Of a stretch of 64,000 bases of DNA, positions 7,056-63,910 are shown one piece after another. The stretch is taken from assembly GCA_965662775.1 (NCBI GenBank), contig CBFIIW010000001.1, positions 10,515-74,514 of the forward strand. Reading direction: 5' to 3'. Every line of letters starts with the position of its first letter. The stretch's first letter is position 1. Under the pieces are notes generated by a model. It did not search any database and was not told where the DNA came from. It saw only the letters and a list, made by a program, of their open reading frames with translations. The position numbers were made by a program, and so were the translations under genes. The DNA is from Alphaproteobacteria bacterium. GTDB lineage: Bacteria; Pseudomonadota; Alphaproteobacteria; UBA7985.

Positions 7056-9164
7056 TTATCCCGCTTCGAGAAATGCTATCGCTTGTTCCCGCTCAAACAA
7101 ATATAGCAGCGTGCGCAGGGCTTGCCCCCTCGATCCAGCAAGGTTGGGGATCTTGTTCAGTGTCAATTGCGCATCGCGCTGCGCGGTTTCTAACAGATCA
7201 TTGTGCTCTGGCAGGTTGGCAAAGCTCATATCAGGCAAACCTGACTGACGTGTACCCATCACGTCGCCGGTGCCGCGGAGGCGCAAATCTTCTTCAGCGA
7301 TGACAAAGCCATCGTTGCTTTCACGCATGATCGACAGACGCGAGCGGGCCGTTTCCCCCAGCGGGGCCGTGTAAAGCAGTAGGCAGGTCGAGGCCTTCAC
7401 GCCGCGCCCGATCCGGCCACGCAGCTGATGGAGTTGTGCGAGGCCGAAGCGCTCTGCATGTTCGATGACCATAACCGTCGCGTTCGGCACATCGACACCG
7501 ACTTCGACCACCGTTGTCGCGACCAGAATATCCAGCTCATGTGCCTTGAAACGGCGCATGACCGCGTCTTTTTCTTCGCCTTTCATTCGGCCATGAACGA
7601 GACCAACCCTTGGCCCAAACATTTCTTGAAGCATTGCATGGCGTTCTTCGGCGGCTGTCAGGCGCGTGACTTCTGTTTCCTCGACCAATGGACAGATCCA
7701 GTAGGACTGATCGCCGGCTTCGATTGCGCGGCGTAGCGCGAGCGCAACATCGCCCCATTGATCTTGGGGCTTTACGATCGTCTTGATAGGCTGGCGTCCA
7801 GCAGGTTTATGCAGCAATTTGGAGATATCAAGGTCGCCATAAAGCGCCAGAACCAGCGAGCGTGGGATGGGCGTGGCCGACATCAGGAGCATGTGCGGTG
7901 CTTCACCCTTTTGTCCCAGCGCAAGTCGCTGATGCACACCAAAACGGTGCTGCTCATCAATGATCACCAGCCCGAGATTACGGAAAGCAACGCCTTCTTG
8001 AAATAGCGCGTGCGTACCGATGAGAATCTTGATCGCGCCCTCGGCACAACCAGCCAGTACTGGCTTGCGGGCTGCGGCCTTGTCCCGTCCAGTGAGAATG
8101 TCGATGCGCACGCCGACTTTATTGAGCGCATCGAATAGGTTGGCATGCAATTGCCGGGCGAGAATCTCGGTGGGCGCCATGATCGCCACCTGGGCGCCAG
8201 CCTCAACCGCAACGAGCGCCGAGAACAAAGCAACCATCGTCTTGCCGCTACCCACATCCCCCATAATCAGCCGCATCATCCGCTGTGCACGACCCATGTC
8301 TGAGCGGACCGCTTCGATAGCCTCATTCTGACTGTCTGTGAGGGTGAAGGGCAGTGCTGCGCGCACTCTCGCGCTCAGGCTATCATCACCTTTCAGCGCC
8401 GTTCCGCCGCGGCGGCGGCCACGTTCGCGCACAATCATGAGCGAGAGTTGCTGAGCGAGCAGCTCATCATAGGCCAGTCGGCGCAGCGCGTCGGTCCGTA
8501 CCCGGTGATCCGGTGCTGGAGCCGTTTCGCCATCTTCTACGCCATCGGTGCGGAAGTGCAGGGCGTTGACGGCCTGCCGCCAGCCTGGCCAACTCTGCTG
8601 CTGCAGTAGGCTGGTGTCCGTCCATTCGGGCAGTGTGGGGGCTTCTTCCAGCGCTGCGTTGAGCGCTTTGTTCCAAACCCGACCCGTGAGCCCCTGTGTC
8701 AGCGGATAGATCGGCTCAGTCTTCGGGATACTGTCAATTTCCTCTGGTGGCACCATGTAGTCGGGGTGGGTAATTTGCCAGGTGCTGTTAAAGCGCGCGA
8801 GTTTGCCCGAGACGACCCGGTCTGAACGCGGGGGCAATTGGCCCGCTAACCAGTCACCTCGGGCGTTGAAAAACACGAGTTGAACAGGGATGTCGCCGGC
8901 CAGCGCATTGACGCGGTAGGGGGCTTTTGGGTTGCGCGGCGCTGAGTGTTGAAGGATCAGCAGTGGCAGCGTGACCAACTGGTCTTCATAGAGATCACTT
9001 GGCGCGACGATGCGGGTGCGCTGCTGAACGCGGTGGGGCTGCGCGCGCAGGATGTCCCACAGGTTCGCACCGGCGATGCGCTCGATCAGCGCGGCCGACT
9101 TTGGACCGATCCCCGCTAAGTCGGTCACAGGGGAAAACAAGGGATTGAGGATTGCTGGCCGCAC
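7056..9164 (-). CDS. recG: ATP-dependent DNA helicase RecG
   Basis: 702 aa. Contains Walker A GDVGSGKT, DEQHRFGV, and the ...MSATPIPRSL... helicase motifs. N-terminal wedge domain is present. Confidence 0.9.
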   Translation of the reverse strand: MRPAILNPLFSPVTDLAGIGPKSAALIERIAGANLWDILRAQPHRVQQRTRIVAPSDLYEDQLVTLPLLILQHSAPRNPKAPYRVNALAGDIPVQLVFFNARGDWLAGQLPPRSDRVVSGKLARFNSTWQITHPDYMVPPEEIDSIPKTEPIYPLTQGLTGRVWNKALNAALEEAPTLPEWTDTSLLQQQSWPGWRQAVNALHFRTDGVEDGETAPAPDHRVRTDALRRLAYDELLAQQLSLMIVRERGRRRGGTALKGDDSLSARVRAALPFTLTDSQNEAIEAVRSDMGRAQRMMRLIMGDVGSGKTMVALFSALVAVEAGAQVAIMAPTEILARQLHANLFDALNKVGVRIDILTGRDKAAARKPVLAGCAEGAIKILIGTHALFQEGVAFRNLGLVIIDEQHRFGVHQRLALGQKGEAPHMLLMSATPIPRSLVLALYGDLDISKLLHKPAGRQPIKTIVKPQDQWGDVALALRRAIEAGDQSYWICPLVEETEVTRLTAAEERHAMLQEMFGPRVGLVHGRMKGEEKDAVMRRFKAHELDILVATTVVEVGVDVPNATVMVIEHAERFGLAQLHQLRGRIGRGVKASTCLLLYTAPLGETARSRLSIMRESNDGFVIAEEDLRLRGTGDVMGTRQSGLPDMSFANLPEHNDLLETAQRDAQLTLNKIPNLAGSRGQALRTLLYLFEREQAIAFLEAG

Positions 9165-22179: not shown

Positions 22180-23220
22180 CTAAGTGAAGCGGTCCAGGGT
22201 CTCCTGGGCCGCTTTTTTCATGGTGGCAGCGCTGAGGTCGTCCAGCGCCAACGGTTCCCCCTGATCCCAACCATAAGCAGAGGCCGAGCCAGCGTAGGCG
22301 GGGTCATAGTGCTGTTCCAGTAAGACGCGGATCAGACCTGGCCAGTCACGCTCGTCCAACAGCTCCAACCAACACCGAATGATACGATGACCATGACGAT
22401 AGGCCAGACGTTCTAAACGATCACGGATGGCTTCGGGGTGATCAAACCAGGGCGCATAGTCAGACAGCGAGTGCGCCACGCGGGCCTCCAGCGGCACGTG
22501 CAGCCGGATGCATTCCGACCCTCGCAGGGCTTGATGCAAATGCTGCGGGACAAACAGTTCGCCGATCTTGGGCGATTCCGATTCAACCCAAACCGGTTGT
22601 TCGGGGTCAAAGCTGCGTAAGGCATCGGCAAGCCGACTATCGAACTCACGCGGCGAGGGCTGGCTCTCGCCCGGTGTTAGGCCGAACATAGAGCCCTTAT
22701 GGTTGGCCAGCCCTTCAAGGTCGAGCACCTGTCCGCCAGCCTCAGCTAGTGCCGTCAGAAAGCGCGTCTTTCCCGTCCCGGTCTGGCCAGCGACAATCCG
22801 AAACCGAAAGCGTGCCGGATCGGTCTGCAATTGGGCCAACACGTCCCTGCGATAACGTTTGTAGCCACCATCGAGTGTGTGAGGCCGAAAGCCGATCTCT
22901 GCCAGTACAAGCGCGACGGACCCCGAACGCTGACCGCCACGCCAGCAGTATACCAGCGGACGGAAACCGCCGGGTTTGTCCATGAAAAATGTCTCTATGT
23001 GTGCGGCTAGATTGCGTGAAATCAGGGCCGCCCCGACCTTCCGTGCTTCGAAGGCGGAGTGTTGCTTATACAGCGTACCAACATGAGCACGCTCTTTGTC
23101 GCTGAGCGCAGGCAGAGAGACAGCACCCGGGATGTGGTCGTCCGCGTACTCGGCCGGTGATCGGACATCGACCACGGCATCAAAGGACTGACGCCAGTCA
23201 GTGATGCGGGTCACGCCCAT
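22180..23220 (-). CDS. mnmH: tRNA 2-selenouridine synthase (rhodanese + P-loop domains)
   Basis: Rhodanese active-site motif CWRGGQRSGS and P-loop GQTGTGKT. Length 346 aa. Confidence 0.85.
   Translation of the reverse strand: MGVTRITDWRQSFDAVVDVRSPAEYADDHIPGAVSLPALSDKERAHVGTLYKQHSAFEARKVGAALISRNLAAHIETFFMDKPGGFRPLVYCWRGGQRSGSVALVLAEIGFRPHTLDGGYKRYRRDVLAQLQTDPARFRFRIVAGQTGTGKTRFLTALAEAGGQVLDLEGLANHKGSMFGLTPGESQPSPREFDSRLADALRSFDPEQPVWVESESPKIGELFVPQHLHQALRGSECIRLHVPLEARVAHSLSDYAPWFDHPEAIRDRLERLAYRHGHRIIRCWLELLDERDWPGLIRVLLEQHYDPAYAGSASAYGWDQGEPLALDDLSAATMKKAAQETLDRFT
22190..22219 (+). terminator. rho-independent terminator for ompA-family gene, embedded in the 3' coding end of the convergent mnmH
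   Basis: A 10-bp stem gcggtccagg/cctgggccgc with one G:U pair and loop gtct, followed by tttttt. Confidence 0.6.
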
Positions 23221-25466
23221 GGACCGGATACCTCCACCTGTGCGCCGTCCGGGAGGACTGAAGCGGGGATGAGGGTTCCAATATGTGCCGCTTTGACGAC
23301 ACCGGCAGCGCGCAAGGCCGTGAGCGCTGCCTCTCCCTGTTCAGGTGGCAGAGAGACAAGCAGTCCACCGCTGGTTTGTGGATCGTGCAGAATCGCGCTC
23401 AAAGTATCGGGGAGATATCTGGCAGCCCGAGCCTGCATTGTGACCTTGCCTTCGGTCGCGCGCTGATTGCCTGCAAGGATGCTGGGCCGAACGCCAGCTG
23501 TGAAGGCGTCCTGAGCACCGTCAAGCAGCGGGAGAGCTGAGGTAAAGAGCCTCGCCGCGAGCTTGCTCGACGGCTCTTCGTGCTGGGTGGCGCTCAATTC
23601 GGCGAGCAAGTGTCCGAGTAGGCCAAACCCCGTTACGTCTGTGCGCAGTCCAGAAGCGAAGTCAGCGAGCACGCTGGCGGCAGCGGCATTGTCCTGCTGG
23701 CAATGATCGAAGGCGTCCTGCACGGCCTGTGGTGATACTCGACCGAGCATTCTACCCGCCAGGATTAACCCGACCCCGAGCGGCTTGGTCAGTATCAAGC
23801 TGTCACCGATTTGGGGCGGCCGCGAGGTGGGGTTGGTTGCTGTCTTTGCAAAGGCCGGTATTTCGCCGACCACGGTGACGGCGGCACTGAGTTCAGCGCC
23901 TTCGGCCGTGTGACCACCGACAACCGGCACCCCGAGACTTTCCAGCCCGGCTTGCACCTGTTCCAGATCCCGTCCCAACGGTGCCTGTTGGGCGAAGGGC
24001 AGGGTAAGGGCGGCGAGCATGCGCGGTTTGATGGCGCCGGCTGCGTGAAGGTCAGAGAGCGCGTGGATTCCCGCGACCCGCCCGAATAGGTACGGGTCGT
24101 CAAAGCCATCACGCAGCAAGTCGACGCTGGCCACATCGGTCCGGTTGAGCAACGCGACGTCACCGGCCGTGCTGCGTTGTCCGAGTTTTGCTTGGAGCAC
24201 GTCAGGGCCGACTTTGCCGCCACAGCCCGCACAGCGCTGCGTGTCCGGCGAAGCTTCCATCTTTGCGACCATCGCCTTGCCAAATTCGTTGTAAGTCTCC
24301 AGCCAGCGCCGGTCGATCCGGTCCTTGAGCCTGTACAACCCGCGGGCTGGAAAGCCGAGACTGAGCCTGCCCCAGATCGCCAGCGCTCTTCCAGTGCCAT
24401 CACCGATGAGCTGCAGTCCACGCTGCTGCATCCGAATCCGCCTTAGGGGGCGACGCTCCACCACGCGGCGCAGATTTTCAGCAAGACCCGGCCCAGCCCG
24501 GACGGAAAAAACGCCAGCCTTTTCTCGTGGGAAGGCAGCGTAGTCGGCACAGTCGCCGGCGGCGAAAACAGCTGGATGTGAGGTGGAGCGCAAATTAGCA
24601 TCAACGGTGACAAACCCACTGCTATCGGTTGCAAGGCCACTGCGTGCAAGCCAGTCGGGCGCGCGCGCTGGGGTCACGGCAAGCACTGAACTGGCTTCGA
24701 TAAACCCGCTTCGGGTTACGACGCCGGTTGCGGTCACTTCCAGCGCGGGTTGTTGCAGATGCAGGCGCACGCCGCGTGCGCGAAGTTCGGCTTGTGCCCA
24801 CCTTGCAGCGGCCGTGGGAAAGCGTGGGAGGAGCCGCGTTCCGCGGTGTAGCAGATCAATGCTGAGTTTTGGAAAGCGGGCAGAAAGCGCCATTGCCAGC
24901 TCGACTCCACCCGCGCCACCACCGATGATACACAGGCGCGCAGTGGGATCACCGGGGCCATCAAAGGAGCGCACGAAGCCCTCTAGCGGCTTCACCGGGG
25001 TGGCGAATGCTGCAGCCCCGGGGATGGTGTCCAGGTCAGGGGTGACACCGACGTTGACCGAAGCGCTGTCAAATCCAACCGGGGGCCGACCCCTCAAGCG
25101 AAAGGTGCCACCGATTGGGTCCAACCCCTCGATCTCAGCAACCAGCAGTCGATGTCCGCCGAGCGCGCACAAACGGTCCAGATTGACGGAGATGTCGGAG
25201 AGGCTGTAGCGACCGGCGATGTGACCCGGCATCATGCCAGAATAAATGGCTGTTCTGGTGCGGGAGATCAGTGTTACCCGAAGGCCGCGGACCGGGCGCA
25301 TGGCTAGCTTTCGCAGTACTTCCACGTGCGCATGTCCGCCTCCGGCGAGGACAAGATCGTGAACAATGGGTTGAATGGGCTGCAAAGGCTGGGCTACTTC
25401 GGATCGAACTGACTGCCCGGATCCTTGGCGCTCCATCGGAACAGGGGCGGGAGGAAGAAGGCCCAC
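23211..25466 (-). CDS. selD: fusion protein: FAD/NAD(P)-dependent pyridine nucleotide-disulfide oxidoreductase (N-terminal) :: selenide, water dikinase SelD (C-terminal, Cys-type)
   Basis: N-terminal VLAGGGHAHVEVL (Rossmann GxGxxH) and a second ...IIGGGAGGVE.... The C-terminal half carries the SelD/PurM-like motifs ...RCAGCGGKVGPDVL... (Cys, not Sec). There is a 10-bp overlap with mnmH. Confidence 0.85.
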   Translation of the reverse strand: MGLLPPAPVPMERQGSGQSVRSEVAQPLQPIQPIVHDLVLAGGGHAHVEVLRKLAMRPVRGLRVTLISRTRTAIYSGMMPGHIAGRYSLSDISVNLDRLCALGGHRLLVAEIEGLDPIGGTFRLRGRPPVGFDSASVNVGVTPDLDTIPGAAAFATPVKPLEGFVRSFDGPGDPTARLCIIGGGAGGVELAMALSARFPKLSIDLLHRGTRLLPRFPTAAARWAQAELRARGVRLHLQQPALEVTATGVVTRSGFIEASSVLAVTPARAPDWLARSGLATDSSGFVTVDANLRSTSHPAVFAAGDCADYAAFPREKAGVFSVRAGPGLAENLRRVVERRPLRRIRMQQRGLQLIGDGTGRALAIWGRLSLGFPARGLYRLKDRIDRRWLETYNEFGKAMVAKMEASPDTQRCAGCGGKVGPDVLQAKLGQRSTAGDVALLNRTDVASVDLLRDGFDDPYLFGRVAGIHALSDLHAAGAIKPRMLAALTLPFAQQAPLGRDLEQVQAGLESLGVPVVGGHTAEGAELSAAVTVVGEIPAFAKTATNPTSRPPQIGDSLILTKPLGVGLILAGRMLGRVSPQAVQDAFDHCQQDNAAAASVLADFASGLRTDVTGFGLLGHLLAELSATQHEEPSSKLAARLFTSALPLLDGAQDAFTAGVRPSILAGNQRATEGKVTMQARAARYLPDTLSAILHDPQTSGGLLVSLPPEQGEAALTALRAAGVVKAAHIGTLIPASVLPDGAQVEVSGPWA

Positions 25467-49224: not shown

Positions 49225-49301
49225 TGGCCCGCCCTGCAGGACTCGAACCTGCAACCTATCGCTTAGAAGGCGAGTGCTCTATCCGGTTGAGCTAAGGGCG
49301 G
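49225..49301 (-). tRNA. tRNA-Arg (anticodon TCT), CCA encoded
   Basis: The reverse complement reads CCGCCCTTAGCTCAACCGGATAGAGCACTCGCCTTCTAAGCGATAGGTTGCAGGTTCGAGTCCTGCAGGGCGGGCCA. It is near-identical in architecture to E. coli argU. The anticodon loop CTTCTAA gives anticodon UCU. Confidence 0.9.
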
Positions 49302-55738: not shown

Positions 55739-55766
55739 AGGGCGCTTTCGGGCGCCCTTTTTTTTG
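55739..55766 (+). terminator. rho-independent terminator after gcrA
   Basis: gggcgc-tttcgg-gcgccc hairpin followed by T9. Confidence 0.85.
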
Positions 55767-57728: not shown

Positions 57729-59270
57729 TCAGCCCTTTTGATCGCTATCGTCAGTTAAGGACTTTTCATCGCTGGTCGCGCTGTCCGAGGTGGTTGTTCG
57801 CTTTGTGTCGCTATTGGTGTTCGACAAAGTGGTGAATGTTGTCGTGGACGTGCGTGTTGGCTGGGTTGTGATATCGGATGTCGACGTGCTCAAAGTCCCG
57901 AAACTCGATGTCGTGCTGATCGATGGTGAAGACGTGATGGTGCTTATCGTCGTTCGGGTCGATAGTGTCGTTGTGTTCACCGTCGGCGTGCGCAACGTTG
58001 TGGTGCCGATGGTGTTGCTGGCTGCGGCCGTCGTTGTGTTGCTTGAGGTGGTATCGCTGGTCTTGGTATCGGTTGTGTTGGCAGTATTTGTGGTCGCGGT
58101 TGTGGTTGCTGCTGTCGTTCCGGCGGCGCCCGCTGTGTCGGAATTCGCTCGGCGATTGTTGGTGCGATCTGAATTGTCGTCGCGATCGTTACTGCCCGTA
58201 TTCAGGAGCGCCCTGGCGGCTGAGGCTCGATCCGCTGCTTCATTCTCGGACTGCCTGCTTGTGCTGGCATTGGTTGTCTGGGTGTCTTGCGTGGTAAAGC
58301 TAGAACCGGCGTATTGATCTGGAAAGGCATCAACCCGCGCTTGAAGTGCGCTCCGGGCCTCAAAGAACAGCTCACTGGTTTTACCCTGAAGACTGTCTTC
58401 TCCCTCTTGATCGGCCATTGTATCAGCTATCTTGTCCAGGCTGCCCTCTGCGTCCTGCTGCAACGAACCGAGCGCAGAAAGCCGCTCAAAGTGGTTCTCG
58501 ACCTCTGCGAGACAGGAATTCGCGGTTTCACAGTTTTCGAGCGAGCCCAGCAACAGATACGTGGTCATGTATTCAGCCACGCCACCGGAATAGAAAAACG
58601 GGTTGTCAAACGCTTCACCAAGCTCATTCAACAGCGCTAGCAGGATTCCGTCTGGGTCTGTGAAAGCCTCAAACCCCTCTGCCCCAACAGACAAAAAACG
58701 GCGTCCACCGGCTGCCGTGTCGAGATCAAGCGTCTCGCCGTTAGCCAGTTCCATGGTCAGGGCGCCGTCATGCAGCCCAAGGTGAACCACGCCTGATGGT
58801 TCTACCAAAACGGTAAAGCGCGTGCCCCGAATGGACAAGCTGCCTACAGGCGTATCAATGCTATACGCCGCCTTATCCATTCGGCCGGTTGTGAAACGCG
58901 TTAAACCATTGACCAGCCTCAGCGCTAGATTTTGCCGCGCTCGGCCCGGGTCGTAGACGAAGGAATCTAGCAAAATCTCGGAATTCGGACCGATGCGCAA
59001 CTCGGTGCTGTCATCGAAGCGAATATCGGCGCTGGATGCCGCCAAGGCCCACACGGATTCATTGGCAAAGGTGCGCCCGCCTGATCGACCCCAGGCAAAG
59101 GCTTCGTCGAGATAGCGACGTTGTACGGCATTATTCACGGCCGTAAATGCGCCGATTTCTGGCTCTGTCGGCAGACTACCGCTGACTGCAGCAACCTGAT
59201 CTTGAGCCAGCGCAGCAGTTCCCGCTAGAGTAAACAGGGAAGCCACAACCAGTCGACCGAGGCAGTCCAT
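57729..59270 (-). CDS. secreted FecR-domain protein with CxxxxC segment and about 200-aa Thr/Ser-rich mucin-like C-terminal tail (paralog A)
   Basis: SD ggaaaggag then MDCLGRLVVASLFTLAGTAALA signal. FecR-like beta-sandwich (...IDTPVGSLSIRGTRFTVLVEPSGVVHLGL...), then CETANSC, then a tail with more than 55% Thr/Ser (TTAATTTATTNTANTTDTKTSDTTSSNTTT...). Confidence 0.6.
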   Translation of the reverse strand: MDCLGRLVVASLFTLAGTAALAQDQVAAVSGSLPTEPEIGAFTAVNNAVQRRYLDEAFAWGRSGGRTFANESVWALAASSADIRFDDSTELRIGPNSEILLDSFVYDPGRARQNLALRLVNGLTRFTTGRMDKAAYSIDTPVGSLSIRGTRFTVLVEPSGVVHLGLHDGALTMELANGETLDLDTAAGGRRFLSVGAEGFEAFTDPDGILLALLNELGEAFDNPFFYSGGVAEYMTTYLLLGSLENCETANSCLAEVENHFERLSALGSLQQDAEGSLDKIADTMADQEGEDSLQGKTSELFFEARSALQARVDAFPDQYAGSSFTTQDTQTTNASTSRQSENEAADRASAARALLNTGSNDRDDNSDRTNNRRANSDTAGAAGTTAATTTATTNTANTTDTKTSDTTSSNTTTAAASNTIGTTTLRTPTVNTTTLSTRTTISTITSSPSISTTSSFGTLSTSTSDITTQPTRTSTTTFTTLSNTNSDTKRTTTSDSATSDEKSLTDDSDQKG

Positions 59271-59481
59271 GTTCTCACGCTCCTTTCCAGACACGTATGC
59301 CTTATTTTAAATGCAAAACCCTTAAGACACAAATTTCAATGGATGCCATCTTGTTACATATTGTTTCAATTGACTGCAGGTGGTCAGGCCGTCAGACGCT
59401 GGCAACACTTCGGTTCAAATACGCCAGGTGGGATCGATCGAGCGTGGTCTTTAAGCTTCAAATGGGTCATTCAGGACAGCG

Positions 59482-60594
59482 ATGACTGATCCCATGCCCC
59501 CTGCCCCACGGAACACAAAGGCTTCGGTCCGCCTTTCGGATACCGCGCCCACAGCGCCCTCACCCGCTCACAGGTCTCCAGGCCCGAAGTTGGCGCTGGT
59601 TGTGCCTTGCTTCAACGAGGCTGCACAATTGCCCACAACCTTTCGGGCTTTGTCAGCCAAGCTGTCAAAGCTGGTAGCCGACGGTAGTATCCATTCGGAT
59701 AGCTTTGTGCTGTTCGTCGACGATGGCTCTTCGGATGAAACCTGGGACCAAATCACAGCACAGACCGCCAGCGATCCACGCTGTCAGGGCCTGCGGTTGG
59801 TGGTGAACGTAGGTCAGCAGACCGCAATTTTTGCCGGCTTACAGGCGGTCGCACTGCGTTGTGACGCAGCCCTTAGTCTTGATGCCGATCTGCAGGACGA
59901 CCTCAATGCGATAGAAGCTATGCTGGCGCATTTGGCCAAAGGTGCCGAAATCGTACTTGGCGTGCGCAGCGATCGGGACAGCGACAGCTGGTTTAAGCGC
60001 AGCAGTGCCCGGATGTTTTACCGGTTTGCACGCACGCTCGATGTGCGTTTGACCGCTGACCATGCCGACTATCGCTTAATGGCGCGGCCTGTGTTGCTGC
60101 GGCTGATGCAGTTTGGCGAACAGGATCTGTTTCTCCGGGCGACGCCGGGACTGCTGAGCGGTAACGTCGCTGTGGTGCGCTACCGGCGCTTACCTCGGGC
60201 TGAAGGCCAGTCTCACTATCCACTCTCCCGCATGCTGGGCCTGGGCTGGACGGGGATCAGTTCTTTTTCTCTCTGGCCGCTGCGGTTGATAACCCTGGTC
60301 GGCTTGCTGACTTCCGCGCTGTCTGTTCTGCTGACAGTTTACGCCGTGCTGTCCTGGGCGAGCGGCAACGCGATCGCGGGATGGACGTCAATTTTTGTCG
60401 CGCTGACGCTGTTTTCCGGGCTGACGCTTCTAGCGCTGGGAATCATCGGCGAGTACGTCGCCAAGATTTACCGCGAAGTCGTCCGTCGTCCTCGCTACTT
60501 CGTCGAGCAGAGCACGTGGCATGATGAAGAGAATGCAGCCGACGCCTCGTCCAAGCCTCAATCAACAGGCTCTTCGCTACCACGACGATCTTAA
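59482..60594 (+). CDS. family-2 glycosyltransferase, polyprenyl-phosphate sugar transferase type (GtrB/ArnC/DPM1-like) with C-terminal TM helices
   Basis: ...LALVVPCFNEA..., ...VLFVDDGSSDET..., DAD motif LDADLQDD, and two C-terminal TM segments. The true start may be an internal TTG/GTG near 59586. Confidence 0.8.
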   Translation: MTDPMPPAPRNTKASVRLSDTAPTAPSPAHRSPGPKLALVVPCFNEAAQLPTTFRALSAKLSKLVADGSIHSDSFVLFVDDGSSDETWDQITAQTASDPRCQGLRLVVNVGQQTAIFAGLQAVALRCDAALSLDADLQDDLNAIEAMLAHLAKGAEIVLGVRSDRDSDSWFKRSSARMFYRFARTLDVRLTADHADYRLMARPVLLRLMQFGEQDLFLRATPGLLSGNVAVVRYRRLPRAEGQSHYPLSRMLGLGWTGISSFSLWPLRLITLVGLLTSALSVLLTVYAVLSWASGNAIAGWTSIFVALTLFSGLTLLALGIIGEYVAKIYREVVRRPRYFVEQSTWHDEENAADASSKPQSTGSSLPRRS

Positions 60595-60621
60595 AGGCGG
60601 GTAGCCCCGCATGCGATCTAC

Positions 60622-62984
60622 TTAAATCAGTGCGGCCATGAGGTCGGCGGTCGATACCCCTGCCCCGGCAACGGCGCCGAAGGTCAACTGTATACTTAGC
60701 GTGCCAAGGTCTGTGTATTGATAGTCCGCTCCTGCGACCGACAGATTTGAAGTATTTGCCGCGCCGGGAATATCGACCGTGTCGCCGTCGGTGACATCAA
60801 AATTCGAAATGGTGAGACCAGCCGCGCCGTTCGGAATGACCAGTGAATCTGCCGCAACATCGCTCCCAAAATCGATGGTGCCCGTCAGCGCTGATTGGAG
60901 CGAAAGACTGTCTGGGCCACTTCCGCCAACGTAAGCGAACGTAGCTGAGCTTGCCGTACCAACTGACACGCTATTGCTGCCGTCACCCAGACGGAAGGTC
61001 AGCGTACCCCCGGCCTGATTGCCGACCGTCACCTGATCCGTACCTGAACCGCCATCCAGTGTAATGCTGCTGCCAAACGAGCCAGAGCCAATTGTTACGC
61101 CAGCTTGGTTGCTTATGCTAACGCTGTTGATTCCATTGCCGAGTGTTGCACTCAGATTGCCTGAATTGGCTGCGAGGCTGTTACCGAAGGTGAGCGTATC
61201 ATTTCCTGTTCCTCCAATATAGTTGATCGAAGCACCACTCGCCGCACTATCGCCAACCAACAGGTGATTGTTCCCATTCTGTAAGTCAATCACATGGGGT
61301 CTGGAGACCGCACCTTTACCAAGATTAGAAAGCGGTGAGGGTGAGGACAGGTTTGTGGCCGAGTAGCCGGCAAAAAAGTGTCAAAATTGGTTCCAGTCAG
61401 GCTGAAGTTGGCTGAGTCTGCCACCATAGCGTCCGACCAATAGGTTCCTGTGTCCAGCACGTCACCGACGGTTACGGTCAAGGTTTCGGTATAAGCGTTG
61501 CCTCCTTCGTCCGTCACTCGAACATCAAAGGTATAGCTTGTTTGAACTTCATAATCCGGCTGATTGATGAACGATAACGCCCCGGTGGTATCGTCAATAC
61601 TGAAAGCGAGGTGGTCATTGGTTATGCCATTGCTCACAAGTGCGAAAACGAAATTCGGGTTGGTGGTCTGGTCGTCGACGACCTGCAAAAGACCGACCTG
61701 AAGGGACGTTGCGTTTTCAGCGATGGAGGTGTTTGAGAGTGTAATGGCCGTGGGCGCAGCATCGCCAGTGGGTGGCGTTAGGCTGTTGGGCCCAAGTCCG
61801 GCTCCCGCCCCAGCGCCGAGACCGGTCAGCGCTTCCTCGGTGCCATCGTCCCCGTCACTGTCACCATCCTCGATTGTGCCCGGCGGAAACTTGACATTCG
61901 GCTCATAGGTTTCCTCAACCAGCCCCAGAATCGTGTTGATCTCGATGATCCCCTGATCAACCTGCGCCGTATTTCCACCGGCCTGCTGAATCTGTCCACG
62001 AATGTCAATCAAGGCCTGCTGCGCGTCCTGTAATTCGACAAAGTTTTCGCTCAACTCGGCGAGGAACTCTTGGGCAAGGGGACCACACTCGCCGCCGTTC
62101 AGACAGGCCTCAATAATCTCTGGTCCAAAGATCTCCGACTTGTACGCGACGATAAAATTCGGGTGAGCACTGGGGGTATCCGACGGCACCTGTATGCTGT
62201 TGAAGGCGGGCGTGATCCCGCGCTGCTGCACTTCAATTGTGCCGCCCTCGGATTTGGTTGCAAATAGAAAGTTCGCCAGAGGGCTATCGCCACGGGCCGT
62301 CGCCGTTAGTCGGCCTGTGGCATCGAGCATGCCAACTTCACCTGTCAGTACGGCAATGGATACTCCATCGAACGGCTCAACGAAAAATACAACCTCGCTC
62401 CCGCGGATTGCGGCTGTCCCAACCGGTGTATCGACCTTGTAAGACCCGTCAGGCATAGAACCTGTCGTCAGTTTCGCCATGCCTGAAAGGATATTGATGG
62501 ACAGGCTGCCTTCGCTGGTGCCCGGCTCGTATATGTATTCATCAAGCGAAATCTCTGAATAAGGCCCCACCGTCAGAGTTGACCAATCGTCAAAGGTCAG
62601 CACCGCTAGGCCATTTTCGTAGGAGCTCACGATTTCGTTGGAGATCAGACGGTCCCCCGCCCTGCCCTCACCGAACTTCTGATCGCGGTAAAATCGATCG
62701 ACCTGCGACTGCACCTGCTCGAACGCGCCGATCTCCACTTCGCCACGCTCCATGACTTGCTCAGCGGTCAACTCGACCAGCCCTTGCCCATGGGCCAGCG
62801 TGAGACCAAAGCCACCGGCAAAGGCCACGGATGACAAAAGCGTTCGACGATGACCTCGTCGGCCAGGCACCAGCTGACGGCCAAAGCACGAAGGTGCCAA
62901 CGGGACCCCAGCAATAGAGATCACTGGTGCGGAAGAAAGTTGATCTGTGTCGAATAAGAAGCGCATTTTACCGAAGTTTTCCAA
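60622..62984 (-). pseudogene. secreted FecR-domain / cadherin-like / Gly-Ser-rich repeat protein (paralog B), split by a -1 frameshift at a T6 run (plus-strand A6 at 61372-61377); either a pseudogene, a sequencing error or a slippage site
   Basis: The upstream ORF (61290..62984) has a signal-like RRTLLSSVAFAGGFGL, then a FecR-like domain paralogous to 57729..59270 (...VDTPVGTAAIRGSEVVFFVEPFDGVSIAVL...), then CLNGGEC, then a cadherin-like repeat (NPNFVFAL...LSFINQPDYE...VRVTDEGGNAYTETLTVTVGDV). The downstream ORF (60622..61293) is Gly/Ser-rich. Its frame is open back to 61380 and joins cleanly at T_TTT_TTG (...TNFDTF|FAGYSATNLSSPSPLSNLGKGAVSRPHVIDLQ...). Confidence 0.55.
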
Positions 62985-63079
62985 GCATTCGATAGACTTA
63001 CCTCAAAGCCGTGAATGTGCCACTGCTCTCTTACGGTTTGGTTGAATTGAAGCTGTCCAGCCGTGCCAGTTCCGCAACG

Positions 63080-63910
63080 TCAAAGACGGATTACTACGCC
63101 TTCCCGCGCAAACTCAGTCGAAACGTCCGCCTTGCCCTGTGCCGATTCTTGATTCTGCGCCTCAAGCTCCGTATCCGTCAGGCGGGGATCGTAGTGTGTT
63201 GGAATCAGCAGCGGCACGTTCGCTGCTCGACACAGGCTCTGGCCTGCCTGCCAGTGAGAATGACCCCAGCCGTGATGCTTCGGCCAGGCTTCGGGGCTGT
63301 ACATGCAGTCATAGATCACAGCATCACAGCCGGACACGAAGGCAATCAGGTCCGGGTCGGCGTCCACGTGTGTTGAATGCTCGACATCGGGGATGAAGGC
63401 AAGGCTGCGTGCCTGCTCACCCGTCCCGCCGTCAAGGCGATAAGCCAGAGCCCCACCAGGGTGATTGACCATCAATGTCTGAACTCCCACGCCACCGATG
63501 GAAAAACAAGTACCCGGCGTGAAGGCATGGAAGTTGAAAGGTTCAAGCACATCCAGACCTATGGGGGTCAATGGCGGCGCCATCAGGTAGCGCAAGGCCT
63601 GCTCTGGTCCCCGCCCGTCGAGTACAGGACCGTAGACGGGGAGCGGGTCTTTGCTTCCATGCCGGAAGAAAGGAAAGCCCAGAAGATGATCAAGGTGATA
63701 ATGCGTGAATAACAGGGCGAGGCTATCCCGCTCCACCGTTTTCATTATGCTCGAATCCAGCCGTGTCAGCCCGGAGCCGGCGTCAAGAATCAGCCCCTGA
63801 CCCTCGATCATAACAAAGAAGCACGTGGTGTCCGTGCCAAAGGACGACGGCCGTGTTGCGCTGCCCGGGTAGGAGCCGCGTACGCCCAGTGGAAGGATCT
63901 CAAAAGTCAT
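63080..63910 (-). CDS. MBL-fold metallo-hydrolase
   Basis: HxHxDH motif ...LLFTHYHLDHLLG.... 276 aa. Confidence 0.8.
   Translation of the reverse strand: MTFEILPLGVRGSYPGSATRPSSFGTDTTCFFVMIEGQGLILDAGSGLTRLDSSIMKTVERDSLALLFTHYHLDHLLGFPFFRHGSKDPLPVYGPVLDGRGPEQALRYLMAPPLTPIGLDVLEPFNFHAFTPGTCFSIGGVGVQTLMVNHPGGALAYRLDGGTGEQARSLAFIPDVEHSTHVDADPDLIAFVSGCDAVIYDCMYSPEAWPKHHGWGHSHWQAGQSLCRAANVPLLIPTHYDPRLTDTELEAQNQESAQGKADVSTEFAREGVVIRL

Follow-up and report, generated by a model that had tools for sequence, protein, structure and literature searches.

At one locus of an uncultured marine alphaproteobacterium, an open reading frame (ORF) for a protein with a FecR and a cadherin domain ends shortly after a run of six T residues, and a second ORF, which lies in the -1 frame, carries on from there. 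The run forms a T_TTT_TTG heptamer in the X_XXY_YYZ phase, and the locus therefore raises the question of whether ribosomes are meant to slip there or whether one gene has been broken in two. The first-pass annotation of the window (the whole stretch of DNA that was analysed, 64,000 nucleotides) offered three explanations for this junction: a homopolymer sequencing error, a pseudogene or phase-variable switch, and programmed -1 frameshifting.

Architecture of the disrupted gene

The gene adjoins the genes for a cNMP-binding protein and a CHASE2 nucleotide cyclase, and the coordinates of its parts are collected in Table 1. The product of the first ORF (ORF1, 558 codons) is identical to P0006, a protein recorded from NCBI and Logan contigs, and both of its domains, FecR (E 2.3e-8; 34.8-42.9 bits, cut-off 24) and cadherin (E 4.8e-9; 36.4-36.9 bits, cut-off 28.8), score above the cut-offs used, which are the Pfam gathering thresholds. 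ORF1 ends with ...TGTNFDTF, followed by LPATRPQTCPHPHRFLILVKVRSPDPM and the stop codon. Frame 0 had been described as implausible after the run; this 27-codon tail has no counterpart in any homologue, and the other elements of the initial description (the ORFs in frames 0 and -1, the TGA 5' of the run, the T6 run, the T_TTT_TTG heptamer and the ATGTGA-type overlap) are all present. From 61380 to 60622, the -1 frame reads HFFAGYSATNLSS...MAALI and a stop codon; the ORF annotated in it, ORF2, has no match in Pfam. Paralog A (57729..59294) has only the FecR half in common with this gene and is uninformative for the junction.

Table 1. Features of the disrupted gene and its junction, in coordinates of the window
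Feature	Coordinates	Strand	Remark
Whole disrupted gene	60622..62966	-	ancestral form is one 780-codon ORF
ORF1, truncated 558-aa product	61290..62966 from ATG, or to 62984 from TTG	-	stop codon included
FecR domain, PF04773	62334..62618	-	residues 117-211, Pfam
Codon 128, TGG (Trp)	62583..62585	-	Gly in all homologues
Codon 140, TCG (Ser)	62547..62549	-	Leu in all homologues
Cadherin domain, PF00028	61467..61730	-	residues 413-500, Pfam
TGA closing the -1 frame just 5' of the T run	61381..61383	-	within aat ttt gac of the intact gene
Mutation, coding strand ACTT in place of intact GA	61376..61379	-	net +2 nt
T_TTT_TTG heptamer	61371..61377	-	created by the mutation
Out-of-frame tail, LPATRPQTCPHPHRFLILVKVRSPDPM	61293..61373	-	27 codons, without counterpart in any homologue
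Stranded C-terminal module	60622..61380	-	252 codons open in the -1 frame
Annotated ORF2	60622..61293	-	223 aa
GTGA overlap	61290..61293	-	ORF1 stop TGA (61292..61290) overlaps GTG (61293..61291)

Many large secreted proteins share an unclassified C-terminal repeat module, of which the stranded ORF is an example. GGxGxD motifs recur in the module every ~42-54 residues, and a QNFD-type motif is found ~65 residues before the end. The AF2 model of the full protein has a pLDDT of 40.6 and is poor outside the C-terminal module; for residues ~560-730, which contain short repeated strands, the pLDDT is 70-86. A sequence search of the PDB with the module gave no match, and the top Foldseek matches are Ca-dependent beta-helices and RTX blocks, with E values of at least 0.2 that are not significant. 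An identity as an RTX/type-1-secreted beta-roll was rejected, as no HemolysinCabind match is obtained from Pfam even at E<=10 and the GGxGxD motifs are not in tandem. Homologous modules form the C-terminus of other signal-peptide proteins, some of which carry cadherin or Big_9 domains. The module is the conserved C-terminal end of a wider family, and its combination with cadherin is therefore the native architecture. The ancestral protein is best explained as an exported protein of ~780 aa composed of a signal peptide, FecR, a helical linker, a Gly/Ala linker, cadherin and a C-terminal beta-solenoid-like repeat module.

Intact relatives and the mutation at the junction

Near-identical relatives (99.6-99.8% DNA identity) read through the junction as one ~780-aa protein, and P0001 (780 aa) aligns with 100% of the repaired query at 99% identity. 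P0002 (774 aa), P0003 and P0004 read ...LTG..DDYAG[YF]... across the junction. The contiguous ORF of roughly 790 aa for which the first-pass annotation had suggested searching orthologues is thus found, at a length of 774-780 aa. At the site itself, the near-identical contigs L001, L006, L021 and L022 have GAC GAT TTT GCC (..NFDDFAGYS..), and L002, L003 and L004, in which the gene is ~68% identical in DNA, have GAT GAC TAT GCC; the homologue on L005 passes over it as ...LDDYAGYG... in one frame. The distant homologues all keep one frame through the junction, and no T tract is found at this site in them. These intact codons in the relatives mean that the allele of the window is derived and not a tract-length variant. 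The homologues on L002 and L004 are broken elsewhere by 1-nt deletions of their own, which are independent. Among JGI metagenome contigs, a protein-pattern scan found no relatives and a DNA-pattern scan found one contig, L006, with the intact allele. From GTDB genomes, a scan recovered just a single homologue, which is distant and scrambled and comes from a Rhodospirillaceae MAG.

Both the mutation and its derived state can be read directly from these alignments: GAC GAT TTT GCC has become GAC ACT TTT TTG CC, a complex GA>ACTT delins. The in-frame state is therefore neither T7 nor T5, as had been anticipated, but T4 with other flanking bases. In the window, the run comprises exactly six bases (61372..61377, A6 on the + strand) and is read in frame 0 as gac act ttt ttg, that is, T_TTT_TTG (61377..61371), placed in such a way that a -1 slip enters the downstream ORF, the -1 frame being open from 61380. 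The heptamer coincides with the frame change because the T run belongs to the causative indel. The TTTTTTG motif by itself is not rare in the window, where it occurs 10 times on the two strands together, and there are 16 A/T runs of at least 6 bases. GA>ACTT is the sole indel in the 8379 bp aligned between the window and L001 (99.65% identity). Further large genes in the window have their full length, which shows that the assembly as a whole is not riddled with errors. No sequence that could have served as donor or template for the mutant 16-mer was found elsewhere in the window, so that neither gene conversion nor template switching inside it is supported.

The explanation that we hold with good confidence is that the locus carries a genuine, naturally segregating frameshift loss-of-function (pseudogene) allele of one gene. 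On this reading, one lineage within an uncultured marine Rhodospirillaceae-like alphaproteobacterium acquired a single complex GA>ACTT mutation in codons 530-531, with a net gain of 2 nt. Ribosomes would lose the native frame behind Phe531 and reach a stop codon after 27 further, meaningless residues; the product would be a 558-aa protein that lacks the C-terminal module, and the last 252 codons would be left stranded in the -1 frame. Both the T6 run and the X_XXY_YYZ phase in which it is read would be by-products of the mutation and not an evolved recoding signal, and the allele would since have spread widely while decaying further. As it has lost the conserved C-terminal module of the family, the truncated product is probably non-functional or impaired; it keeps the signal peptide, FecR and cadherin and could have partial function. 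We infer that carriers do not produce full-length protein in meaningful quantity. The forms would differ in their peptides, which are NFDTFFAGYSATNLSSPSPLSNLGK for a rescued product, NFDTFLPATRPQTCPHPHR for the truncated one and NFDDFAGYSATNLSSPSPLSNLGK for the intact allele.

Spread and further decay of the frameshift allele

The recurrence of the allele in independent assemblies is a direct observation. The same allele, always with T6, is present in 14 of 14 fetched split-gene contigs, which come from at least 14 runs or assemblies, and is therefore not a sequencing error; a homopolymer error, the first of the initial explanations, is excluded by this identity across many assemblies from several projects. 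The sources of the carriers include ERR9649xxx, ERR12652123, ERR12177239 and ERR13954xxx runs, ERZ27286xxx, TARA and KOPF15. Among the proteins, P0007 is read on 24 contigs and indexed in 31 blocks, P0009 is found on 15 contigs, P0006 on 4, and P0014, P0015 and P0016 on 2 each.

Only two states are seen at the site, GATTTT (4 contigs) and ACTTTTTT (the 14 fetched contigs and the window). The frameshift allele is perfectly linked to C at 61410, which indicates a single origin, and the other SNPs are mosaic. Intact and frameshift alleles co-exist in the same marine population, with ~50 frameshift and ~14 intact contigs on record, and such commonness could mean that the frameshift allele is neutral or even favoured, not deleterious. 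No T7 (781-aa) or T4 (780-aa) revertants were found for three haplotypes in an exact look-up, which has little power since it requires the exact full-length sequence. No contig seen has a stop codon within the stranded 252 codons, as expected if the event is recent, and diversity within the frameshift clade (0-3 differences per 2.3 kb) is too low for an estimate of constraint.

Additional lesions are directly visible in the carriers. A GAG>TAG nonsense mutation at codon 286 (E286*) is shared by L018, L019 and L020, a sub-lineage of the frameshift clade. Trp128 is a derived, radical replacement present in most of the fetched frameshift contigs, and Ser140 is private to the window, L007, L008 and L009. 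The window and L001 differ at 29 positions in 8.4 kb; 15 of these lie inside the 2.3-kb gene, in which 6 differences are nonsynonymous and 5 synonymous. E286*, W128, S140 and the 6:5 ratio are suggestive of relaxed constraint or further inactivation, as small counts that are not statistical.

Programmed frameshifting and residual slippage

The junction resembles the sites of programmed -1 frameshifting in bacteria, such as dnaX (A_AAA_AAG) and orfAB of IS3/IS911, in that an X_XXY_YYZ heptamer lies in frame 0, the ORF downstream of it is in the -1 frame and the two overlap in a window. Unlike in those systems, the heptamer is not conserved, being absent from every relative with an intact gene, and the 'trans-frame' product would be nothing other than the ancestral single-frame protein. 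Stimulators of the kind found in dnaX and IS3/IS911 are missing as well. The downstream hairpin or pseudoknot that the first-pass annotation had advised looking for did not appear, as the RNA 3' of the heptamer folds no better than shuffles (z = -0.28 for 61 nt and +0.29 for 121 nt) and forms only a 4-bp hairpin 2 nt after the site; no GGAGG-like, Shine-Dalgarno (SD)-like element lies 8-14 nt upstream of the heptamer. The slip motif is itself poor: in the available portion of the E. coli data, the U_UU.G tetramer gave just 1.8-3.6x background even with the strong IS3 pseudoknot, and the A-site re-pairing of UUG to UUU is non-cognate and inefficient (PMC4066793). Together with the upstream nonsense codon in one sub-lineage, these features leave programmed -1 frameshifting unsupported.

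A milder form of slippage has to be weighed separately. The mutation would be real, and U_UUU_UUG would let a small fraction of ribosomes slip by -1 ('savior' slippage), giving a strongly attenuated allele and not a null one; in a variant of this, RNA polymerase would add a U on the T6 run, and carriers would make a little 781-aa protein (DTFF for DDF). A T6 run is shorter than the runs known to give appreciable transcriptional slippage. The phase of the heptamer is correct for the shift that is needed, -1, and would restore the frame, so some leaky rescue may occur: the -1 frame opens just 5' of the run, the slip product would be the native protein plus one residue, and the allele is common with its downstream frame intact. 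About 61% of X_XXZ_ZZN heptamers are measurably shift-prone in E. coli without stimulators (PMC4066793), and the 'correction' of indels in translation is a recognised phenomenon (PMC5009743). Against this stand the low yield of U_UU.G even with the IS3 pseudoknot, the lack of structure above shuffles downstream and of an SD-like element upstream, and a sub-lineage that tolerates a nonsense codon upstream; moreover, the right phasing arises by chance in one case out of three and is unremarkable. Leaky rescue of this kind is thus considered unlikely.

An extension of this idea, which we regard as quite unlikely, would make the GA>ACTT allele an expression 'dimmer' that leaves traces of full-length protein and would take it, together with the frameshifts of the sister lineages, as a sign of recurrent selection in the open ocean for the reduction or loss of an exposed FecR-cadherin surface protein. 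If that were true, the losses might reflect, for example, escape from a phage or grazer that uses the protein as a receptor.

Split gene, phase switch and artefact

It is very unlikely that the locus is a functional split gene, in which a 223-aa protein with its own initiation (GTG 61293, coupled to the TGA) would be made and would work together with the 558-aa FecR-cadherin protein. The GTGA stop/start overlap, the annotation of the 223-aa ORF by gene callers in many contigs and its intactness in all carriers speak for such an arrangement. However, the GTG at 61293, the first of the -1 frame, is an ordinary internal Val codon that is unchanged in the intact allele, where GTGA is part of His-Val-Ile (CAT GTG ATT), and the GTGA is therefore not an evolved coupling signal. 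There is no SD within 5-12 nt of it, the nearest purine-rich stretch being AAAGGTG, 17 nt upstream, and a promoter/terminator scan of 60300..63300 had no hits, which leaves an internal promoter for ORF2 without evidence. The overlap described in the first-pass annotation is real; the translational coupling that it was said to permit is not upheld. The fragment would also lack the N-terminal signal peptide that is present in every family member, 30 conserved residues (FAGYSATNLSSPSPLSNLGKGAVSRPH) are missing from both products, and no homologue has two genes at this point.

A phase-variable ON/OFF switch of the surface protein, driven by slipped-strand changes in T-tract length, is highly improbable. 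The locus is similar to the homopolymeric-tract contingency genes of host-associated bacteria in that an exported, adhesin-like protein (here a predicted one) has in-frame and out-of-frame forms with the break at a mononucleotide run, and the 'ON' (780-aa) and 'OFF' (558-aa) forms occur within the same marine population. Contingency tracts typically have 7-8 or more bases, and the T6 run is shorter. In contrast to contingency genes, the difference between the two alleles consists of substitutions and 2 extra nt (GA>ACTT) and not of a change in tract length, and no intermediate lengths are seen, only T4 or T6, with T6 in 14 of 14 fetched OFF contigs and GATTTT in 4 of 4 ON contigs. The full linkage of OFF to a SNP 30 nt away points to one historical event and not to frequent switching, the distant homologues have no tract here, and the look-up of T7/T4 revertant proteins on three haplotypes, with its limited power, found none. 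Of the second initial explanation, the pseudogene is upheld by the derived lesion and the contiguous homologues, whereas the phase-variable switch is not supported, given the delins, the constant T6 and the absence of revertants for the three haplotypes tested.

An artefact of sequencing or assembly in the source record of the window, to which a frame break at a homopolymer and a source resembling a metagenome-derived contig (P0006: source NCBI, longest contig 244,530 nt) might point, is scarcely credible, given that the change includes substitutions and not a length error alone, is the sole indel in 8.4 kb, and recurs as an identical complex allele in dozens of contigs assembled independently (ENA submitters, Logan) from many runs and projects on several SNP backgrounds.

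Comparison with known systems and significance

As a loss-of-function allele, the locus is comparable to other frameshift pseudogenes and segregating loss-of-function alleles of bacterial surface proteins, in which a small indel at a short homopolymer yields two adjacent ORFs, close relatives are intact, and a nonsense codon and radical substitutions pile up. It differs from ordinary cases in three respects: the lesion is a complex delins, GA>ACTT, and not a simple +1/-1 change, the broken allele predominates in ocean samples from around the globe, and homologues in sister lineages are independently broken.

The surroundings of the gene recall FecR proteins encoded beside CHASE2 sensors, since an exported FecR protein is found here in a locus with a CHASE2 cyclase and a cNMP-binding protein. 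In S. meliloti, the CyaD1/Clr target SMc02177 is a FecR-domain periplasmic protein encoded near a CHASE2 sensor (PMC5498481), and a Burkholderia operon combines a LysM-FecR protein with a CHASE2 histidine kinase (PMC5192318). In contrast to these systems, the FecR domain is fused here to cadherin and the unclassified C-terminal repeat module, and its association with CHASE2 is one of gene neighbourhood only.

The outcome is mostly a clean negative, in which a textbook-looking slippery heptamer at a frame junction is the scar of an indel. It is also a caution for recoding scans, as indels arise at homopolymers or create them and one third of the phasings will look 'canonical'. Annotations should treat the ORFs of 558 aa and 223 aa as a single frameshifted gene. 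For the organism itself, an uncultured marine alphaproteobacterium, the locus documents a globally distributed and still-decaying loss-of-function allele of an exported FecR-cadherin protein in a CHASE2 cyclase/cNMP locus.

Junction and ancestral state

The FecR-cadherin gene of the window very probably carries a real frameshift allele, of single origin and wide distribution, that truncates an exported protein; further decay of the gene is under way. On the coding strand the junction reads aat ttt gac act ttt ttg ccg gct, with a run of exactly six T (61372..61377) phased as T_TTT_TTG, and past this run frame 0 continues for 27 residues that have a counterpart in none of the homologues. Re-reading of the sequence bore out what the first-pass annotation had described of the frames, the closing TGA, the T6 run and the phasing of the heptamer. 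Because T6/A6 runs are common in the window (16 A/T runs of at least six bases, 10 occurrences of TTTTTTG), the slippery motif by itself carries little weight, and its coincidence with the frame change is what counts. The longest homopolymer of the window is a T8 run at 55758-55765, at which L001, the contig of the intact relative P0001, has no indel in the 8.4-kb alignment.

Features of the FecR-cadherin gene and its neighbours
Feature	Position	Strand	Remarks
ORF1	ATG 62966 to TGA 61292..61290	minus	558 codons; 564 if from TTG 62984
FecR domain PF04773	ORF1 residues 117-211	minus	Pfam
Cadherin domain PF00028	ORF1 residues 413-500	minus	Pfam
Second ORF	open from 61380 to 60622	minus	-1 frame
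TGA closing -1 frame	61383..61381	minus	
Codon 128, Trp	62583-62585	minus	all homologues Gly; most fetched frameshift contigs
Codon 140, Ser	62547-62549	minus	all homologues Leu; window sub-haplotype
MBL-fold gene	63080-63910		cyclase and cNMP genes of relatives lie just past the window's right end
CHASE2-guanylate/adenylate cyclase (763 aa) and cNMP-binding protein (459 aa)	L001 1-4900, L010 1-2900		directly upstream of MBL-fold gene
GT2 glycosyltransferase	59482-60594		opposed; separates the two paralogues in all relatives
Paralog A	57729-59294	minus	only N-terminal FecR half in common (33% identity, E 2e-32)

The protein repaired by adding one T, used as the homology query, matches P0001 (780 aa, 99% identity, full length) and three homologues at 56-70% identity. 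The proposed check of orthologues for a contiguous ORF is borne out at the junction, which all four proteins cross in a single frame, P0001 as ...LTGTNFDDFAGYSATNLSS... and P0002, P0003 and P0004 as ...LTG..DDYAG[YF].... L001 is 99.65% identical to the window over 8379 bp, and the sole indel of the alignment is the junction site, where L001 reads GAC GAT TTT GCC and the window GAC ACT TTT TTG CC. The L001-type allele also occurs in L006 (a GenBank metagenome contig), L021 and L022, and three contigs in which the gene is ~68% identical in DNA read GAT GAC TAT GCC. These are the natural in-frame alleles, not the T7 or T5 run that had been expected. Since the DNA of the relatives is in frame at this site with other bases, the in-frame state is ancestral and the window allele is derived from it by a complex replacement, GA>ACTT (net +2 nt), through which the T6 run and the heptamer themselves arose.

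Alternative explanations

The best surviving alternative, though an unlikely one, is a leaky -1 rescue at this accidental heptamer. According to a systematic study in E. coli, stimulator-free heptamers reach 2.1-10 times a background of 0.055%, efficient slip motifs permit cognate re-pairing in the A site, and U_UU.G, even beside a strong pseudoknot, rises no higher than 1.8-3.6 times background (PMC4066793). Programmed -1 frameshifting, as the first-pass annotation had suggested, finds no support: the motif is poor, the heptamer is absent in every relative with an intact gene, and no SD-like element was found upstream of it. The proposed search for a downstream hairpin or pseudoknot yielded only a 4-bp hairpin, 2 nt past the slippery site, and folds of the 61 nt and 121 nt that follow are no more stable than those of shuffled sequence (z = -0.28 and +0.29).

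Somewhat less probable is a functional split gene. The GTG overlapping the ORF1 stop, at which translational coupling had been envisaged, corresponds to an internal Val of the intact protein (...RPHVIDLQ...), no SD was found for it, and the resulting fragment would have no signal peptide. Phase variation is slightly less probable again. The site occurs in just two states, separated by a delins rather than by tract length; none of 18 contigs has an intermediate tract length, and no T7/T4 revertant proteins were found for three haplotypes, a test with limited power. Of the suggested pseudogene or phase switch, it is the pseudogene that is supported, by the derived frameshift, by a nonsense codon 286 in one sub-lineage and by changes at invariant sites, and the switch is not.

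An artefact, such as the sequencing error also considered at first, is hardly credible, given that 14 of 14 frameshift contigs fetched read ACTTTTTT exactly and that the 90%-identity cluster of P0001 has many 558-aa members with exactly identical out-of-frame tails, on several SNP backgrounds. The window's own 558-aa product (P0006) occurs on four contigs; of the other frameshift products, P0007 is read on 24 contigs and indexed in 31 blocks, and P0016 comes from TARA and KOPF15 scaffolds. The intact 780-aa form is found on about 14 contigs (P0001, P0010, P0011, P0012, L006). The frameshift is completely linked to C at 61410, and at the remaining SNPs the two allele classes share variants in a mosaic, which indicates a single origin and later recombination, or else mixing of strains in assembly. 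Full-length large genes elsewhere in the window include Mfd, RecG, SpoT, a hybrid kinase, an NtrC-like activator and MoeA.

Further decay of the gene

In the frameshift sub-lineage L018-L020, codon 286 is changed from GAG to TAG (L018 3001-3858; window equivalent 62111, where the window has G and no nonsense codon), dividing the gene into ORFs of 285, 254 and 223 aa. The 285-aa product, P0009, is present on at least 15 contigs, one of them a 270.8-kb scaffold. Trp128 and Ser140, radical changes in or next to the FecR domain at positions invariant even in homologues at 61-70% identity, are consistent with relaxed constraint. Between the window and L001, 15 of the 29 differing positions of the 8.4-kb alignment fall inside the gene, with 6 nonsynonymous and 5 synonymous differences.

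In sister marine lineages, the homologue on L002 (~7560-7620) has lost 1 nt after a G5 run, in GGGGGTGCG (~codon 577), that on L004 (~480-520) has lost 1 nt from a G run, in GTCGGGGA (~codon 110), and the copy on L005 (6000-8425; Rhodospirillaceae MAG JAYQIC010000010) is scrambled; that on L003 is intact. These independent breaks, each on a single contig, may reflect either genuine repeated loss or errors of assembly.

Locus and neighbours

In relatives, the locus comprises in order a cNMP-binding protein, a CHASE2 nucleotide cyclase, an MBL-fold protein, the FecR-cadherin gene, the opposed GT2 glycosyltransferase and the FecR paralogue. It is similar to published FecR-CHASE2 neighbourhoods (PMC5498481, PMC5192318), and the FecR/CHASE2/cNMP arrangement resembles the cyaD1-clr-smc02177 locus of S. 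meliloti; from this neighbourhood, the FecR-cadherin protein may have a role in CHASE2/cNMP signalling. Paralog A ends in a ~180-residue low-complexity tail rich in Thr, Ser and Asn in place of the cadherin and repeat module.

Inside the MBL-fold ORF, ARAGORN reports a 92-nt "tRNA-His (anticodon atg)" (63756-63847, minus), which is probably a false positive; the Rfam tRNA model at gathering threshold gives no tRNA-His there. A tRNA-Arg(tct) at 49225-49301 is backed by both. A 751-aa ORF (23211-25466, minus) combines a pyridine-nucleotide-disulphide oxidoreductase with AIRS/AIRS_C domains, as a SelD-like fusion.

The intact protein and its C-terminal module

From N- to C-terminus, the intact protein consists of an RR-containing hydrophobic leader, the FecR domain, a helical segment, a GAGAGAG linker, the cadherin domain and a C-terminal module of ~250 residues. 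AF2 models it poorly as a whole (pLDDT 40.6); in the C-terminal module, pLDDT is 70-86 and short, regularly spaced strands suggest a beta-solenoid. Foldseek gave no significant match, the best, all at E>=0.2, being to Ca-dependent beta-helices and RTX blocks, and Pfam and PDB sequence searches with the module were both negative.

With ORF2 as the query, a full HMMER scan gives 67 representatives, most of the longer ones matching toward the C-terminus. All ten longer module proteins with inspected N-termini have a signal-peptide-like leader, and Pfam detects cadherin in three of ten module proteins and Big_9 in one (examples are P0031, P0038, P0041, P0046 and P0054). The module is marked by a QNFD-type motif (...QNFD...D..D) ~65 residues from the end and by GGxGxD every 42-54 residues. 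The stranded region at 60622-61380 (minus) belongs to this module, which is unclassified and has no model in Pfam. Its C-terminal position and its cadherin or Big_9 partners in relatives argue that cadherin followed by the module is the native architecture, and the frameshift deletes the conserved terminus of this family. The phenomenon itself is ordinary, and it affects a gene and a C-terminal module that are both uncharacterised.
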